From: an uncultured delta proteobacterium
GTDB lineage: Bacteria; Desulfobacterota; Desulfuromonadia; Geobacterales; DSM-12255
DNA length: 64,000 nt
Assembly: GCA_963787125.1 (NCBI GenBank)
Contig: CAWBBV010000002.1
Coordinates: 64,001-128,000, forward strand
Direction of reading: 5' to 3'
Part shown: positions 4,279 to 63,733 of the stretch, in pieces
Layout of the letters: each line of letters starts with the position of its first letter
How positions within the stretch are numbered: position 1 is the stretch's first letter
Program-made: the position numbers and the translations under genes
Notes under the pieces: model-generated
Database searches by the model: none
Seen by the model: the letters and a program-made list of their open reading frames with translations, nothing else
What the model was told of the DNA's origin: nothing

Positions 4279-5062
4279 GGTCGCCCCCCTTGCCATCTTC
4301 CTCATGCTCAATCTTTTTAGGCCCGATCGTCACGTAATGCAGCAGCATTGCCCCGATACTCCCCCAGAAACCGAGGATGCCGAGCGGCTTAATCACATCC
4401 TTCCAAAGGAAAATAGAGAACGGGATGCTGGGGCTGGCAGGAAGACCGTACTGCTCCGGCGGACCTTCCAGTGCGTAGACCACCCCCAGACCATTGAGGT
4501 CATCGACGCCGTAAAGAGTTTTTTTAGCGGCGGTTGCCTTGGCAATCAGATCACTCCGCTTGCCATACTTGAGGGTCTCTGTCGGACAGGCCTTGGCGCA
4601 GGCCGGGATCATGCCGCCACCGATCCGGTCCAGACAAAGGTGGCATTTGCTGACCTTGTCATCGCTGTCGTAGCGCGGAATATTGAACGGACAGGCAGAG
4701 ACGCAGTACTTGCAGGAGATACACTTCTCCTTATTGTAAGCAACAATGCCGTCTTTGGTTCGATAAAGCGCCCCCGGCGAAGGGCAGACTTTCATACAAC
4801 CTGCCTCTCCGCAGTGCATGCAGCGCTCATTGAAAAAAAGCCAGGAGACCTCCCCCGAATTCTCTTTTTCAATAAATTTTATGCGGTTGTAAAGGGCCGG
4901 TGTCAGGTCACGGGGGTTTTCGAAGGTCCCCTTGTTGGCGGTTTTGTCGGCATCGAGTTTATTCCACTGCTTGCAGGCAACCTGACAGGAGCGGCAACCG
5001 ATGCAACGAGAGGTATCGACGAGAAAACCCTTACGGGCAGCTTGGTTGATGTTATCGGCCAT
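4271..5062 (-). CDS. fdnH: Formate dehydrogenase beta (Fe-S) subunit
   Basis: CIGCRSCQVAC, CMHC..C..VCP, CISCKYCVSACP and KCHLC..R..PACAKACP ferredoxin motifs; C-terminal TM anchor. Confidence 0.93.
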   Translation of the reverse strand: MADNINQAARKGFLVDTSRCIGCRSCQVACKQWNKLDADKTANKGTFENPRDLTPALYNRIKFIEKENSGEVSWLFFNERCMHCGEAGCMKVCPSPGALYRTKDGIVAYNKEKCISCKYCVSACPFNIPRYDSDDKVSKCHLCLDRIGGGMIPACAKACPTETLKYGKRSDLIAKATAAKKTLYGVDDLNGLGVVYALEGPPEQYGLPASPSIPFSIFLWKDVIKPLGILGFWGSIGAMLLHYVTIGPKKIEHEEDGKGGDHE

Positions 5063-12186: not shown

Positions 12187-12284
12187 GGAAGCACTTCGGT
12201 CTCTGGTGGGCCGCCCGGTCTTCAAAACCGGTGGGGGGGATGAGAAATCTCCCCGGTGGGTTCGATTCCCATGTGCTTCCGCCA
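12187..12284 (+). tRNA. selC: tRNA-Sec (anticodon UCA)
   Basis: GGAAGCAC/GTGCTTCC 8-bp acceptor stem, CT-TCA-AA anticodon loop, long variable arm, GTTCGATTC T-loop, 3' GCCA. Confidence 0.95.
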
Positions 12285-53663: not shown

Positions 53664-54883
53664 TAAATTCTCTCTCACTCGGCTACCGTCGCTACGCACT
53701 CGGACTGTTTCTAACAATCAACATGCTGAACTACATCGATCGCCAGGTTCTTTATGCGGTTTTTCCGCTCATCAAAGAATCCCTGCAGATCTCTGATACT
53801 TCGCTGGGGCTTTTGGGTAGCGCCTTCATGGTAGTCTACATGTGTGCCGCCCCCATATTCGGCTGGCTTGGCGATAAGGGGGGCAGAGTGCGCCTCGCGG
53901 CCAGCGGTCTGGGAATATGGAGCCTGGCAACAGTACTTGCTGGCATGGCCTCCGGCTATAATCAGCTTCTTGGAGCCCGTTCACTTGTTGGAGTCGGCGA
54001 AGCGAGTTTCGGCACAGTTGCACCCGGGATGATCTCTGACTATTTTCCGCAGGAAAAAAGGGGCAGGGTCCTCTCCTGGTTCTACCTGGCTATCCCTTTA
54101 GGCAGCGCGCTCGGTTATCTGCTTGGCGGAGTCATCGGTGCCCGTTTCGGTTGGCAGACGGCGTTCCTTATGGTCGGAGCACCGGGACTTCTATTGGTAC
54201 TGCCGCTGGCATTCCTCAAAACGGTTGAGTTTAAAAAAGAGGTGAGATCGGGCGGCAGCAGTTATACGACCCTGTTTAAAAATCGCTCCTTTATGCTTAA
54301 CACCCTGGCGATGACGGCTATGACCTTTGCAATGGGCGGGATGGCCCAGTGGCTGCCGACATTTCTTAACCGAATTCACGGCTTGAGCGTAGAACGCGCC
54401 AACCTGCTATTCGGCGGACTGACGGTTGTTGCCGGGATTATCGGCACACTGGTCGGCGGCTGGCTCGGAGATTATTACCAAAAAAAGCGGCCCGACGGTT
54501 ATCTGCTGGTTTCAGGCTGGGGTTTCATCTTCGGGATACCGGCACTGATTCTGGCGCTGACAGCCACCAATCTCACCCTCACTCTTGCCGGGATATTTCT
54601 GGCAGAGTTCTGCCTCTTTCTGAACACCGGCCCCTTGAATACCGTGATTGTCAATGTAACCCGACACGACATGCGGGCAATGGCCTTTGCCGCAAATATT
54701 TTTGTTATTCATGCCTTGGGAGATGCTATCTCTCCGGCATTCATAGGTTTTCTCTCTGACCATTTTGGACTGGGCAAAGCACTGCTTTCAACAGTCGCAG
54801 CCATACTGATTGCGGCGCTGTTCTGTTTTCTCTGTGGAAAAAATATCGCCAAAGATCTCATCATTGACGACCCTGCCAGATAA
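53660..54883 (+). CDS. MFS transporter (spinster-like)
   Basis: NYIDRQ, GVGEASF, ISDYFP and HALGDAISP motifs; about 12 TMs. Confidence 0.9.
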   Translation: MINSLSLGYRRYALGLFLTINMLNYIDRQVLYAVFPLIKESLQISDTSLGLLGSAFMVVYMCAAPIFGWLGDKGGRVRLAASGLGIWSLATVLAGMASGYNQLLGARSLVGVGEASFGTVAPGMISDYFPQEKRGRVLSWFYLAIPLGSALGYLLGGVIGARFGWQTAFLMVGAPGLLLVLPLAFLKTVEFKKEVRSGGSSYTTLFKNRSFMLNTLAMTAMTFAMGGMAQWLPTFLNRIHGLSVERANLLFGGLTVVAGIIGTLVGGWLGDYYQKKRPDGYLLVSGWGFIFGIPALILALTATNLTLTLAGIFLAEFCLFLNTGPLNTVIVNVTRHDMRAMAFAANIFVIHALGDAISPAFIGFLSDHFGLGKALLSTVAAILIAALFCFLCGKNIAKDLIIDDPAR

Positions 54884-54929
54884 ATTTCTTTACAAGACAT
54901 ATATAATTGCAGTATATTTCCTTTTTCCT

Positions 54930-55020
54930 GGAGAGATGTCCGAGCGGTTGAAGGAGCACGCCTGGAAAGCGTGTGTACGTTAATAGCGTACCGAGGGTTC
55001 GAATCCCTCTCTCTCCGCCA
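54930..55020 (+). tRNA. tRNA-Ser (GGA)
   Basis: GGAGAGA/TCTCTCC acceptor stem, CACGC-CTGGAAA-GCGTG anticodon arm, long variable arm, GTTCGAATC, 3' GCCA. Confidence 0.96.
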
Positions 55021-55129
55021 TTTAGCAATCTGGCGAAGTCCGATACAGTCCGAAAGCCTCTGATAAATCAGGGGCTTTTGCTGTTTTTGCGTCCAGGCAC
55101 ATCCAGCCCCGTCTTTTGACATCCGGTGT

Positions 55130-55185
55130 TTTTTATGGTACTTTTTTATCCATAATACCATAAAAATTTTCGGATACCATAAAAA
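55130..55185. repeat. Putative integrase arm-binding sites
   Basis: ATACCATAAAAA twice (55155, 55174) plus inverted TTTTTATGGTA (55130), between the tRNA and the integrase start. Confidence 0.55.
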
Positions 55186-55196
55186 CGAGGTGACTT

Positions 55197-56459
55197 ATGC
55201 CGAAACGAGTAGTTCCGCTGACTGACGTGCAGGTAAAGAACGCAAAACCCAGAGACAAAGACTACAAGCTGGCTGATGGGTATGGCCTGGTGCTTCTCGT
55301 AAAGAAGACAGGCGGGAAGCTTTGGCACTTCAACTATACCTTCGACGGCAAGCAACTGCTGCTCTCCCTTGGCACCTACCCTGAAATCTCTCTCGCAGAA
55401 GCCCGCCAGCGCCGTGAGGATGCTCGAAAACTGCTTGCCCACGGAATAAGCCCGGGCGATGTCCGCAAAGCCGAAAAACAATCACAGACCCAGCAAACGG
55501 AAACTTTCGAGGCAATTGCCCTGGAGTGGTACAACCGCCAGGTGCCGGTCTGGGCAGCAACCCACGCCGCTACGGTCATCAGCCGCCTAAAGCGCGACGT
55601 ATTTCCTCATGTGGGAGCACGAGCAATTTCAGAACTCAAAGCGACCGACATGCTGCAGGTATTTCGTAAGATCGAAGCGCGTGAAAAGATTGAAACGGCC
55701 CACCGGGTCAAATCTATCTGCGGGCAGGTTTTGCGGTATGCCGTCGCTACCGGACGGGCTGAGCGCGATTGCACTGCAGACTTGAGAGGCACGCTGACAC
55801 CGGTCATCCCCAAACACCACGCAGCCCTCACCGATCCCAAAGAAGTTGGCCCTTTTTTGCGGGCCATTGATGATTACGATGGCTCGTTCACAGTCAAGTG
55901 CGCCATGCGACTGTCTGCGCTTGTTTTTCTTCGACCCGGTGAATTACGCTTGGCAGAATGGACCGAGTTCGACCTGGACGCAGGTGAATGGAACGTACCT
56001 ATCGAGCGAATGAAGCTCAAGAAGCGTCTGAAAGAATCGCGCAAAGGTGAAAAGCATCTTGTTCCGCTGGCACAGCAGGCAGTTGAAATTCTGAAGACGC
56101 TGAAACCGGTAACTGGTGGAGGGAAATATCTCTTTCCGAGCATGACCACCAACCTGAAGCCGATCAGCGACAATACGATCAATCAGGCCATTCGGCGCAT
56201 GGGCTATGACAAGGACGAAATGACCGCCCACGGCTTCAGAGCCATGGCCAGAACAATCCTAGAGGAAGTCTTGCACATTCAACCTGAGATTATCGAACAC
56301 CAACTGGCCCATGTCGTCAGAGATTCGCTCGGCCGCGCCTACAATCGAACGACTCATCTGGCGGCACGGAAAAAGATGATGCAGACGTGGGCTGACTATC
56401 TCGATAATTTGAAAACTGGTGCAATAGTCATACAACTATCTGACCGGGCGGCCAAATAA
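55197..56459 (+). CDS. P4-family tyrosine integrase
   Basis: Arm-binding N-terminus (YKLADGYGL, LGTYPEISLAEAR); catalytic R (LRPGE), HGFR, HQLAH and AYNR. Confidence 0.95.
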   Translation: MPKRVVPLTDVQVKNAKPRDKDYKLADGYGLVLLVKKTGGKLWHFNYTFDGKQLLLSLGTYPEISLAEARQRREDARKLLAHGISPGDVRKAEKQSQTQQTETFEAIALEWYNRQVPVWAATHAATVISRLKRDVFPHVGARAISELKATDMLQVFRKIEAREKIETAHRVKSICGQVLRYAVATGRAERDCTADLRGTLTPVIPKHHAALTDPKEVGPFLRAIDDYDGSFTVKCAMRLSALVFLRPGELRLAEWTEFDLDAGEWNVPIERMKLKKRLKESRKGEKHLVPLAQQAVEILKTLKPVTGGGKYLFPSMTTNLKPISDNTINQAIRRMGYDKDEMTAHGFRAMARTILEEVLHIQPEIIEHQLAHVVRDSLGRAYNRTTHLAARKKMMQTWADYLDNLKTGAIVIQLSDRAAK

Positions 56460-56585
56460 TGACTTCACGATGTTGATGACATATTGTCAGTATGTTGCAG
56501 CAGGTTTCTGCATGTAACATACTGATATATAAAGACAAATTATCTATTTTGTTCTTGACGTTGCCGTCTGAAATAGTATTATACC

Positions 56586-57277
56586 GTCTCACATAGGTTG
56601 ATTCCGCTCGACATGGCGGGGTCAAAGGCCACCACATGAGACTTGGCGACATTTGTCGCCTACATTCAGTCCTGATTGCTCTGCCCAGCGTTCAGGACGG
56701 TGACAACTACAAAACTTTGGCCGATGCTTCGGGCATATGAGCATCAGGTCAAACTAACCGGCGAATCAACATTGCCCAGTTGAACCGGGGGAACAGAGTA
56801 TCGTAACTGAATGCGGGCACCGCAAGGGCATTCAGTCACTCCTCCAAGCCACCATGCCAATGGCCGAGGATATGACGCGATAGTCACCTGTCTACATGGA
56901 GGCAGGCAAAACGCCGTCCGCCTTATAGTGACTTACCGGCGGGCACTTAGTCTCTCAGGGTACGGCCTTCGCGTTGCATTTGTTTCTGCAGGTATCTAAT
57001 GGTACGTCTTGCAGTCATCGTTGCAGCGAGAAGGAGTAGTTTATCCTGATTGAGACAAAAATCTCTTCATAACGTTTTTGTGGATAGGCCATCACCTGCA
57101 AAGGTAATGGCCTTTATGCTGAAACGTCACCATCGGCGGCACGTATCATCCTGCCGCACACGCCTTAGACCCTAGCAATATTTCCTTAACTGCCTCGCCC
57201 TGTCGAACACCAGTCAGGCGTCGGTCTGCCAACCGAACGTCCGGCGCAGGATCTCCAATCAATAAACACGGAGGCAG
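56586..57277 (+). ncRNA. Candidate large structured RNA / hairpin array
   Basis: No credible ORF; more than 12 consecutive stem-loops with G-U pairs on the + strand, preceded by a TTGACG-N17-like promoter. Confidence 0.45.
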
Positions 57278-57282
57278 AACAT

Positions 57283-57546
57283 ATGGGAATCATCACCCCC
57301 ACCTTGCCGGAAACCGGCTTTGTCCGGCTACCCAACATCATCGGCGACGCCAAGGCCGATCCACCCATTCCCCCGATCATACCGGTATCGAAGAGCACCT
57401 GGTGGGCCGAGGTGAAATCCGGACGCTACCCTCAATCGGTAAAATTAGGCCCCCGAATTACAGCCTGGCGTGTAGAAAGTATCCGGGAACTCATCCGAGA
57501 AAGCCCGATGTTCCGAAACGGCCAGACAATGGTCAACATTGAATGA
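57283..57546 (+). CDS. AlpA-family regulator / excisionase
   Basis: GFVRLPNII..VSKSTWWAEVKSGRYPQSVKLGPRITAWR. Confidence 0.88.
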   Translation: MGIITPTLPETGFVRLPNIIGDAKADPPIPPIIPVSKSTWWAEVKSGRYPQSVKLGPRITAWRVESIRELIRESPMFRNGQTMVNIE

Positions 57547-57558
57547 CAAGGAGCACCG

Positions 57559-58536
57559 ATGGACTGGATAAAAGTCATGTGCAACATCCTTGATCACCGC
57601 AAAATCAAAATGATCCGTAAGGGACCGGAAGGGAACACCCTCGTCTTACTCTGGCTGCTCATGCTGGCTGAAGCGGGTAAATGCAACCGGGGCGGCTACC
57701 TCATGGTATCCGACAGCCTGCCGTACACGGCAGAAACCCTCAGCATGGTCACTGACATCCCCCTTCCCACAGTCCAGCTTGGACTGGCAACCCTGGCCGC
57801 ACTCGACATGATCGATCGGCAGGACGGCGCCATCTTCATCAAGAACTGGGGCAAGTACCAGAGTGAAGACAAGCTGGAAGCAAAACGGGAACAGGATCGA
57901 AAGCGGCAACAAAGGCATCGGCAGAATGAGCGGGAGAAAATACTCGCACTGCCGGCACCGTCTCAGCTGTCACGTGACAGTCACGCTACCATGTCACGTG
58001 ACGTCACGCAGCAGAACAGAGAAGACAAGAAGAGAGAAGAAAAGACAATAACAGAAAAGATCCGGTTGTTGTTGTCCGGAACTCCTCTGGCAAAGATCAA
58101 AGACAAGGAACTGGATGTACTGGTGAATCGGCATGGTCATGAGCGGTTGCAATTGGCAGTCGATATAGCCGCCGAAACCTGGCGGCGGTGCCGGGAGGAC
58201 AAGCAGAACCCCGGCGGCTACCTCCATTCACTATGTGCAGCCCTGGTTGTGCCCGACTGGTATCTGCCCCATGCAGAGCGAATAGCGCTGGCTGAGTCCT
58301 CACAACGGCACAAGTCAGGGTTTGAAGCAGAACAAGCCGAGCTGAAGGCCCGGGAGGAAGTGCAGGTCGCGGCAATGAATACATTATGGGAATCATTGTC
58401 GGAGGAAAAACGGGAGGAATACTGCTCAGCAGCACGAGAAGGTCTGCCGACAGGCATAGCGCCATCCATCGCAATAACAGCAATGGCCAAGTTGCGTGCA
58501 TGGGAGACAGAGACATTGAACGTCTTAGTTGCATAA
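57559..58536 (+). CDS. Phage replisome organiser N-terminal domain protein
   Basis: MDWIK..DHRKIK..LWLLMLAEAG..PYTAETLS..IKNWGKYQ. Confidence 0.85.
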   Translation: MDWIKVMCNILDHRKIKMIRKGPEGNTLVLLWLLMLAEAGKCNRGGYLMVSDSLPYTAETLSMVTDIPLPTVQLGLATLAALDMIDRQDGAIFIKNWGKYQSEDKLEAKREQDRKRQQRHRQNEREKILALPAPSQLSRDSHATMSRDVTQQNREDKKREEKTITEKIRLLLSGTPLAKIKDKELDVLVNRHGHERLQLAVDIAAETWRRCREDKQNPGGYLHSLCAALVVPDWYLPHAERIALAESSQRHKSGFEAEQAELKAREEVQVAAMNTLWESLSEEKREEYCSAAREGLPTGIAPSIAITAMAKLRAWETETLNVLVA

Positions 58537-60513: not shown

Positions 60514-60714
60514 GATTTTGACAGCCATGCTAGAAATCAAAAAGATTCTAAGCACAGCTCCATTTTAGGTTACTATTATGGTGCCGTAATCGGATTGTTT
60601 CCGGCAAGTCCCAATAACTCGTCCAATTAATCATCCATTTCAGGGCTGTTTATGGCATCTACCTCGTATAGCAGGCTTGAGTATGGGGGCACTGCAACAT
60701 TTTATGGAGAGAAT

Positions 60715-61506
60715 ATGTTAGTCCGCCCATTTTCCGATCTTCATGCCGAATTCTGGCCGGCCAACAAGATTGATCGTATCCTCGGCATGGTGATCCCGCC
60801 TCTTCCGACTGACATGGAAACCGTTGCCCTGGTTGCCGGCGACATCGGCCTTGCTCACCGTCAGGAAACCTGGCTCAAGATCATCAGCCTTCTTGCCAAG
60901 CGGTTCATGGCAGTCATCTATGTGGAGGGGAATCACTTTTTCTATCACAACGACTTCTTTGGACGTATCCCGGAGCTGAAAGCCAAGCTGTCGTTTCCCA
61001 AGAACGTTCACTTTCTTGAAAATGAATCGGTTGAGATCAACAGTGTCCTGTTTGTCGGGGCAACCCTCTGGACGGATTTCCTGGACAAGGATTTCTTCAA
61101 GATGCAGTATGCCCGGAAGAACATGAACGACTTTGTCGTAATCAGAAAGGCTGACGGGATGCGGCTCATGCCGGAGGAGACGGTTGATCTGTTTCAGGAA
61201 TCGAAACGCTATATCTTTGAGGCACTGGCAACAGCCGGCGAAAAGAAGACTGTCGTGGTAACACACCATGGCGTATCACCCCTGTCTATTCATGAGCGGT
61301 TCCGGGGAGACAGCCTCAACTGTGCCTTCATGACCGACATTTCCAATGAGATCATCGATCATGGCCCGGATCTCTGGATTCATGGCCATACCCACAACTC
61401 GTTCGACTACGCTCTCGGCAAAACTCGGGTGGTCGTGAATCCTTACGGTTACAAGGATGTGGAGGTCAATCCGCAGTACGACCACAAACTCGTCATTGAA
61501 TTCTGA
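60715..61506 (+). CDS. Calcineurin-like metallophosphoesterase
   Basis: SDLH, AGDI, GNH, THH, HGHTH and NPYGY motifs. Confidence 0.9.
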   Translation: MLVRPFSDLHAEFWPANKIDRILGMVIPPLPTDMETVALVAGDIGLAHRQETWLKIISLLAKRFMAVIYVEGNHFFYHNDFFGRIPELKAKLSFPKNVHFLENESVEINSVLFVGATLWTDFLDKDFFKMQYARKNMNDFVVIRKADGMRLMPEETVDLFQESKRYIFEALATAGEKKTVVVTHHGVSPLSIHERFRGDSLNCAFMTDISNEIIDHGPDLWIHGHTHNSFDYALGKTRVVVNPYGYKDVEVNPQYDHKLVIEF

Positions 61507-62968: not shown

Positions 62969-63733
62969 TCAACCACCAACGCCATAAATTGAGCGCAGAT
63001 CCCTGAGAACCTCGCTAAGACTCCTGCTTCTTAACCCCAAGTTTTTCAAATCCACACTCTGATCACTCTCTATTTCATCAAAAAAATGCCGCAGATCTTC
63101 CTTAATGGAGGCTGGCAGACCAATTGATTGCCCTGGGTCGACGATCTGATACAGCCTGAACACGTCATTCTTATGTTTCTTTACGTCCTTATCATCAATC
63201 GCATCGCCGGCTTCACGCCTTTTCTTCAGGTCTAGCCAGGCTCGTGCCTTCAGTGGAATCAGGTAGGCCGGCCCAAGTACGGGTAAACCGTCTGTCTCCT
63301 GTTTCCCGGCATGGATAAATGCATAGTAGTCCTTATCCAGCAGGATGGCTGAGAGACTGGATACCTCTTCATCCATCGGAATTGGGGTCAGATGGCTGTC
63401 GTCACCGATGGTCAAAGCGTCCGGCACGCGCGAAAATAATTCCAGCATCACTGGAAAGGAATCGTCTTCAGGGGTTTTGAACCGATAAAACTGTTTCTGG
63501 CCTGTGCTTTTCTCTTGAATCTTGTATTTGCCGTTGCCAATAAACTGCCAAAAAGCCGTCACGAAATCACCATCCAGCGCTTCCACGCACAGGACGATGT
63601 CGAGATCCTTGGTTGCCCGAAACTCCAATCCAACATCTTCCATTACAAGGGAGCAGGCCGTTCCACCAATCAGCACATACCTATCTGCAAATGGCGCAAA
63701 ATGTGCTTTGAACCGTTCAATGCCTCTCACCAT
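62969..63733 (-). CDS. Nucleotidyltransferase-fold protein (AbiEii / type IV toxin-like)
   Basis: VLIGGTAC..RATKDLD, LKARA and KHKNDV motifs. Confidence 0.7.
   Translation of the reverse strand: MVRGIERFKAHFAPFADRYVLIGGTACSLVMEDVGLEFRATKDLDIVLCVEALDGDFVTAFWQFIGNGKYKIQEKSTGQKQFYRFKTPEDDSFPVMLELFSRVPDALTIGDDSHLTPIPMDEEVSSLSAILLDKDYYAFIHAGKQETDGLPVLGPAYLIPLKARAWLDLKKRREAGDAIDDKDVKKHKNDVFRLYQIVDPGQSIGLPASIKEDLRHFFDEIESDQSVDLKNLGLRSRSLSEVLRDLRSIYGVGG

Follow-up and report, generated by a model that had tools for sequence, protein, structure and literature searches.

Gene content and layout of the locus

The window (the whole stretch of 64,000 nt that was analysed) carries a tRNA-Ser(GGA) gene at 54930-55020, which adjoins a gene on the + strand (55197-56459) for a P4-type tyrosine integrase, with arm-binding, central and catalytic domains all found. 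A gap of 823 nt separates the integrase stop from the start of an alpA-like gene, and a replisome-organiser gene (57559-58536, PF09681 match of 4.9e-47) lies just downstream of the latter. The order int-alpA-rep at a tRNA or tmRNA gene, by which PICI/P4-like satellites are recognised, is present in the window beside tRNA-Ser; it is also the layout described for Gram-negative PICIs (PMC13612085 and PMC6092414). The main features between the integrase gene and the replication gene are as follows:

56555-56582, + strand: sigma-70-like promoter (TTGACG 56555-60, 16-nt spacer, TATTAT 56577-82; 10 of 12 matches)
57086-57120, + strand: intrinsic terminator (GGCCAUCACC, loop, GGUAAUGGCC, then UUUAUGCU)
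57121-57282, + strand: distal leader of about 160-165 nt between terminator and alpA
57283-57546, + strand: alpA-like gene, 87 aa (PF05930 at 20.9 bits, just below the cut-off of 21)

To the right of the replisome-organiser gene are ORFs without assignment, a metallophosphoesterase (phrog_1649, 2.7e-53) and a weak AbiEii-like nucleotidyltransferase ORF (21.1 bits, below cut-off), the cargo coordinates being 60652-61506 and 62969-63733 (-); these two are possible defence genes. No second copy of the tRNA-Ser 3′ end was found in the window or the rest of the contig and the right end of the island was not located, nor were helper phage, packaging or capsid genes identified within the window. An inverted repeat follows at once after the integrase stop (56470-56537, CAGTATGTT..AACATACTG around GCAG..CTGC) and could either terminate the integrase transcript or bind a protein; the Rfam matches on this repeat were noise only. 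Also a conserved ACATACTGATAT-like box is seen about 25 nt upstream of the -35 element. It may be noted that the window has a tRNA-Sec gene as well (12187-12284), and that one relative island (L042) is inserted beside a tRNA-Sec.

Relatives and their distribution

When 41 genomes, 40 relatives and that of the window, were searched at the DNA level, three gave matches: that of the window, G007 from its genus and G039 from its order. G007 keeps window positions 56474-56684 and 57045-57282 at 80-83% identity without the 360 nt in between, and in G039 the spacer is 310 nt long and carries the same promoter, first hairpins and terminator. Among pattern-matched stretches, 573 of 600 encode AlpA relatives, and the AlpA alignment gave 79 genome loci. 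On matching by blastn and nhmmer, a long form was found in L007, L010, L011, L013, L031 and L040, and short forms, which keep the promoter, the 5′ hairpins and the terminator only, in L019, L055, L062, L063, L005, L042 and L018. A 23-nt motif of the middle domain occurs at 24 metagenome loci, in 15 of which a co-oriented alpA homologue follows 413-798 nt downstream. L089 and L104 are also family members, truncated by contig ends, and the remaining seven, which lack both alpA and a model match, were set aside as chance or unassigned. Family members make up about nine lineages below 88% identity, all of them upstream of alpA homologues, and the islands of the relatives are placed at tRNA, tRNA-Sec and tmRNA genes.

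In 10 of 18 representatives a small conserved ORF (about 100 aa, MA... start, DFEEWF motif) lies between the RNA and alpA:

L010, 2082-2396: small conserved ORF
L007, 2091-2405: small conserved ORF
L031, L011, L013, L098, L040, L105, L096 and L090: small conserved ORF at the matching places

No Pfam or PHROG family was found for this ORF, and any likeness to ribbon-helix-helix proteins is presumed by us. The window and L101 pass straight from the leader to alpA without it. L019 (contig 89 of G007) has two alpA homologues, at 2513-2710 and 4765-4971, of which the second has a short leader and adjoins a truncated helicase-like ORF; this suggests tandem or decayed islands.

Three patterns run on viral contigs gave 0, 1 and 48 loci with no family member among them. 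The single locus (L084) has no model match, and the 48 show no R1 match (the covariance model given below), alpA or integrase and are apparently ordinary, probably coding, sequence. Phage and plasmid collections gave no match on distant blastn. In a phylum sample of 150 other genomes, R1 gave two weak matches (E 0.002-0.003), which were treated as false because neither has alpA, integrase or nhmmer similarity.

Promoter, terminator and distal leader

The -35 CTTGAC and a TAnnnT -10 align in all 18 representatives. The original prediction had placed a promoter here with TTGACG and TAGTAT; the former is retained, and TATTAT at 56577-82 is the better -10. From the promoter geometry, transcription would start near 56589, and a start at this place would cut into the outer GTCTCA stem that had been included in the prediction. 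The same terminator stem sequence followed by a T run is present in 10 of 14 leaders scanned (window, L101, L010, L040, L019, L055, L062, L063, L005 and L042). The window copy is found by the looser scan only, because it has one mismatch and a weak T run, which a strict scan misses. In groups C and D a terminator clearly homologous to that of the window was not found.

The distal leader carries the hairpins GCGGCA/UGCCGC and UCGGU/ACCGA (57222-37) and is conserved in G007, L010 and L040. Within it, AUCUCC (57251-56) is complementary to the alpA Shine-Dalgarno GGAGG (57270-74); this helix has 77% paired cells, with covariation no better than shuffles. Taken in order, a promoter, a structured 5′ region and an intrinsic terminator, the arrangement by which an attenuator is recognised, are all found before the first ORF.

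Helices of the folded domain

The stems named in the original prediction are all present in the sequence, at the following positions on the + strand:

56598-56607 / 56616-56625: TTGATTCCGC / GCGGGGTCAA, inside GTCTCA (56586-91) / TGAGAC (56637-42)
56645-60: GGCGAC/GTCGCC
56669-98: GTCCTGA/TCAGGAC
56716-53: TTTGGCCGATGCT/AGCATCAGGTCAAA
56806-36: ACTGAATGC/GCATTCAGT
56887-906: CCTGTCT/AGGCAGG
56916-44: GTCCGCC/GGCGGGC
56950-57056: rod
57086-113: AGGCCATCACC/GGTAATGGCCT
57136-57: GCGGCA/TGCCGC

The stems GTCTCA/TGAGAC and GGCGAC/GTCGCC are present in only part of the RNA family. The folding energy of 56586-57277 is better than that of shuffles on both strands (z -6.77 on the + strand and -4.24 on the - strand, 20 shuffles each), and the segment 56589-57120 has z -6.81 with 100 shuffles; control pieces of equal length from the integrase gene and the replication gene gave z -0.69 and -2.32, respectively. 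The first ~530 nt hold at least 10 helices, one pseudoknot (P9/P10) and two candidate loop-loop contacts:

56598-56625, + strand: P1 hairpin, GAUUCCGC / GCGGGGUC, the most conserved element, kept in short forms
56624-56635, + strand: box after P1, AAAGGCCACCAC, resembling the terminator 5′ arm and complementary to the 3′ arm
56645-56660, + strand: P2 hairpin, GGCGAC/GTCGCC, lineage-specific
56669-56698, + strand: P3 and P3a hairpin with conserved loop CUGCCC (56681-86)
56716-56753, + strand: P4 hairpin with a bulged A and loop GGGCA (56731-35)
56758-56788, + strand: P5 hairpin, UCAAC/GUUGA inside CCGG/CCGG
56806-56836, + strand: P6 hairpin, ACUGAAUGC/GCAUUCAGU
56841-56869, + strand: P7 hairpin, loop CCAUGC (56852-57) complementary to the P8 loop
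56882-56944, + strand: pseudoknotted core of P8, P9 and P10
within the core, + strand: P8, CCUGUCU/AGGCAGG with loop ACAUGG
56882-87 / 56928-33, + strand: P9, AGUCAC/GUGACU
56916-22 / 56938-44, + strand: P10, GUCCGCC/GGCGGGC
56950-57056, + strand: P11, rod-like long hairpin of 25 pairs, 92% paired

In P1, 98% of cells are paired over 7 pairs, two of which changed on both sides, with many G-U. P2 is seen in the window, in G039 (as GGCAAC/GUUGCC) and in L040 and is absent in groups C, D and Z. The pairs changed on both sides number 9 of 11 in P3/P3a, 7 of 9 in P4 and 5 of 7 in P5. For P6, covariation was judged by eye, MAFFT misaligning its 3′ strand; the counterparts so read are AUCAGUUGC/GCACUGAU in L010 and GAACC-CGUUG/CAACG-GGUUC in group D. 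P7 is weak (4 pairs, 79% paired) and becomes a 9-bp stem in groups C and D. P9 and P10 interleave and therefore form a pseudoknot. In P10, 4 of 5 pairs change on both sides, and sequences read directly from other lineages give GCCUG/CGGGC, UACCC/GGGUA, GCGUCCG/CGGACGC, GUCUA/UAGAC and GGCAA/UUGCC for P10 and GGUCA/UGACC and GUUAC/GUAAC for P9. The rod P11 has 8 pairs changed on both sides among 7 window-type sequences. A long-range pairing of the P6 loop with the terminator tail proposed by RNAalifold was dropped as spurious.

The P3 and P4 loops are complementary (CUGCCC with GGGCAG) and almost invariant, which makes a kissing contact between them a candidate; the P7 and P8 loops (CCAUGC with GCAUGG) are likewise complementary and nearly invariant. 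Because these loops do not vary, both loop-loop pairings are taken as candidates and not as findings.

In 6 of 10 sequences (window, L010, L019, L062, L063 and L005, not L101, L040, L055 and L042), several of them close kin, no segment of the leader pairs better with the terminator 3′ arm than the box after P1 does. This pairing hints at a candidate antiterminator strand. Three similar boxes complementary to the terminator 3′ arm are seen in the window, AGCCACCAUG at 56848-56857, GGCCACCAC at 56627-56635 and GGCCAUCACC at 57087-57096, and in L101 the copy in the P7 loop is the best partner of that arm.

Covariation, strand and coding potential

In a MAFFT alignment of 18 sequences, P1, P3, P3a and P5 together with the loop-loop pairing have 95% of cells paired, and 14 of 28 pairs changed on both sides; shuffling gave 7.4 ± 1.7 and did not reach 14 in any of 500 trials, and slid controls gave 3-6. 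A covariance model (R1) of P1, P3/P3a, P4 and P5 was made from 11 distant-group sequences, the window and its near kin being left out. On searching 100 sources with R1, the window is matched at full length (56594-56787, 35.5 bits, E 1.2e-8), and matches were also made to L101, L031, L011, L007 and L087 and, weakly, to L019, L040 and L018; the other ~80 alpA or control loci among these sources, seven pattern-only controls included, gave no match. The filters of this search removed L010, a sequence 97% identical to L087. The R1-derived alignment of 20 sequences has 90.9% of cells paired and 23 of 34 pairs changed on both sides; the shuffles gave 13.0 ± 2.1, with none of 500 reaching the observed count, and the slid controls 4-12. 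For the remaining part (56796-57125, covering P7, P8, P9, P10, the rod and the terminator), seven window-type sequences from four lineages have changes on both sides at 15 of 52 pairs, where shuffles gave 6.9 ± 1.8 (none of 500 as high) and slid controls 1-6. A second model (R2) of the P8-P10 core, made from group C/D sequences only, was too narrow and gave false positives, and its alignment was not used; on the window it made a local match only (56883-56906, E 0.045).

Compensatory changes thus support helices along the whole length, one pseudoknot included, and the RNA structure is well supported. The idea of a long structured RNA on the + strand, from which the analysis had started, agrees with the covariation, the G-U excess and the conserved promoter and terminator. 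We take the + strand as the RNA because G-U cells far outnumber A-C cells, 93:18 and 39:15, in line with the many G-U positions noted on this strand in the original prediction, with the caveat that the structures were chosen on the + strand.

The same counts bear on a structure at the DNA level, in which hairpins of single-stranded DNA would serve an island replication origin, a packaging site or a recombination site. The folding of the - strand beyond its shuffles (z -4.24) and the replisome-organiser gene just downstream fit such a role. Against it are the strand asymmetry (on the other strand, pairing would fall from 91% to 78%), the frame of conserved promoter and terminator around the region, and a pseudoknot and loop contacts that are typical of RNA. 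The single-stranded DNA structure which had been offered as an alternative is therefore highly improbable. Nothing was found that shows a processed array of small RNAs, which had been the other suggestion.

That the region is the remnant of a protein gene, or hairpins lined up by chance, can be given practically negligible weight. Small ORFs do exist, one of 62 aa on the + strand (56811-56999) and a 23-codon frame seen by eye on the - strand near 57018-56947, but translated similarity among homologues is spread over all six frames with frame switches between relatives, the leader indels among relatives are not multiples of three, and none of the 7 window ORFs has a Pfam match at E up to 1. No ORF is conserved among homologues, which bears out the earlier statement that none is convincing. 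Chance hairpins are excluded by the covariation and the z-scores.

Possible transcripts in public libraries

A metatranscriptome contig (X19) is identical to 56635-56785, and in a second metatranscriptome study (X20) contigs of relatives cover most of 56564-57424. Some of the contigs from RNA libraries span the terminator, where it may be noted that DNA carry-over is possible and that contigs show presence only. No sequencing run holds at least half of the sampled words of the stretch. Transcription of the leader is only weakly indicated, by contigs from two metatranscriptome libraries.

Comparison with known RNAs and satellites

The leader had been said to belong to no known family, and searches against Rfam 15 (4227 families) came back empty for it, in the window at E up to 10 and in 12 relatives at E up to 1. 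In searches of the literature on alpA with structured RNA, on satellites with noncoding RNA and on riboswitches, no description of the leader RNA turned up. The region is a conserved, uncatalogued large structured RNA of about 530-690 bases.

Large structured bacterial RNAs such as GOLLD, ROOL, HEARO, OLE and raiA are in Rfam and are often found in phages and mobile elements. The leader RNA shares with them a length of several hundred nt, many covarying helices, pseudoknots and a place in mobile DNA; it differs in having a fixed place as the 5′ leader of one operon, and the covariance models of the known large noncoding RNA classes in Rfam 15 made no match in it.

The int-alpA motif (RF02996), which has no known function, is likewise placed between an integrase gene and alpA in integrated elements. 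That motif, 71 nt in length, adjoins the integrase stop and consists of a three-way junction with a U run behind it, whereas the leader RNA has its own promoter, starts about 130 nt after the integrase stop, is 7-10 times longer and has no helices in common with it. RF02996 (threshold 35.8 bits) gave no match in window positions 54800-57700 (E up to 10) or in 12 relatives (E up to 1). The search itself works, because the motif was matched at 51-61 bits in L037 (1642-1721), L034 (1600-1664) and L079 (1249-1317). True int-alpA RNAs are thus seen in beta/gamma-proteobacterial islands of the same AlpA family, and in L034 no integrase separates the motif from the tRNA upstream of it.

Another likeness is to P4 CI and P1/P7 C4 (Rfam C4, clan CL00128), which are also untranslated leaders of satellite or phage early operons with short complementary boxes. 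In P4 immunity, an RNA processed from the leader causes premature termination, according to PMC4825925. The leader RNA is far larger and pseudoknotted and has no sequence or structure match to these RNAs: the C4 clan models gave nothing within 56460-57282, and the sole clan match (c4-a1b1, 13.4 bits, E 6.2, at 55043-55079) is noise. The original prediction had invoked CI/C4, and this comparison holds as an analogy of position only, because no C4-family match was found.

The likeness to CI bears on whether the RNA is a stand-alone stable RNA gene of ~530 nt, running from promoter to terminator and acting in trans, for which the place before alpA would be secondary. Such an RNA could serve satellite immunity or interference like P4 CI or P1 C4, or act as a scaffold or decoy for helper-phage or host proteins. 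In favour of it, the region has a promoter of its own, a terminator is placed 165 nt ahead of alpA, and the pseudoknot and near-invariant complementary loops (CUGCCC/GGGCAG and CCAUGC/GCAUGG) are beyond what an attenuator needs. Also, the three GGCCAC-like boxes complementary to one arm recall the logic of seqA/seqB/seqC in P4 (PMC4825925). As opposed to this, a search at E up to 10 gave no C4-family match, the RNA always lies directly upstream of the same operon and in its orientation, and the distal leader is conserved too. A trans-acting RNA gene is the chief alternative to a leader and is possible, if unlikely.

In the third comparison, the AlpA of P. aeruginosa lets RNA polymerase pass a downstream intrinsic terminator (PMC7969949 and PMC9371919), and a protein of the AlpA family, a promoter and an intrinsic terminator downstream are common to that system (PMC9371919) and the island. 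The two differ in that P. aeruginosa AlpA acts on other operons and the available text describes no large structured RNA there, whereas in the island the terminator lies upstream of alpA itself and no AlpA-binding element was identified. For Gram-negative PICIs, whose int, alpA and replication gene order beside a tRNA resembles that of the island (PMC13612085), PMC6092414 describes an AlpA that turns on its own expression and requires a helper phage, whose inducer is stated there to be unknown.

Proposed role of the leader

We favour the reading that the region is probably a cis-acting leader, that is an attenuator, of the alpA-replication operon in a PICI/P4-like satellite island at tRNA-Ser. 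This reading is drawn from the order of features in the sequence and from the literature on autoactivation by PICI AlpA, on read-through by Pseudomonas AlpA and on termination by the P4 leader RNA. That the leader gates alpA is likely but unproven, and the terminated product may also act as a stable RNA.

In such an attenuator, transcription would begin at the conserved sigma-70-like promoter at 56555-82, the domain of ~530 nt would fold, and the terminator at 57086-57120 would come next. Most transcripts would stop there, by which the master activator AlpA would be kept off. Read-through into alpA would need a signal. AlpA might supply it by travelling with RNA polymerase, as it does in Pseudomonas; alternatively, the leader could refold so that the terminator 3′ arm pairs with the box after P1, or a factor from the helper phage could bind the folded domain. 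The distal ~160 nt may in addition hide the alpA ribosome-binding site.

The middle domain of 350-450 nt is an add-on to a simpler attenuator, as short natural forms without it show. Also, simple attenuation needs no conserved tertiary structure of 500 nt and the short forms lack one, so that the big domain may do something else. One such function is that of a sensor RNA, the pseudoknotted middle domain being a very large riboswitch-like or protein-binding module; a helper-phage protein, an RNA or an infection-specific metabolite would be detected, the leader would refold and read-through into alpA would follow. We consider this sensor function doubtful. If true, it would be the missing inducer receptor of AlpA-type satellites.

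Few bacterial RNAs of several hundred nt with conserved tertiary structure are known, and each one found has opened a line of work. The position of this one is fixed and telling: on one side is the promoter, on the other alpA, the activator by which PICI-type satellites enter their life cycle. A deletion series is already at hand in the short and long forms that occur naturally, and if the RNA gates alpA, the activation of alpA by the helper phage becomes a testable question.
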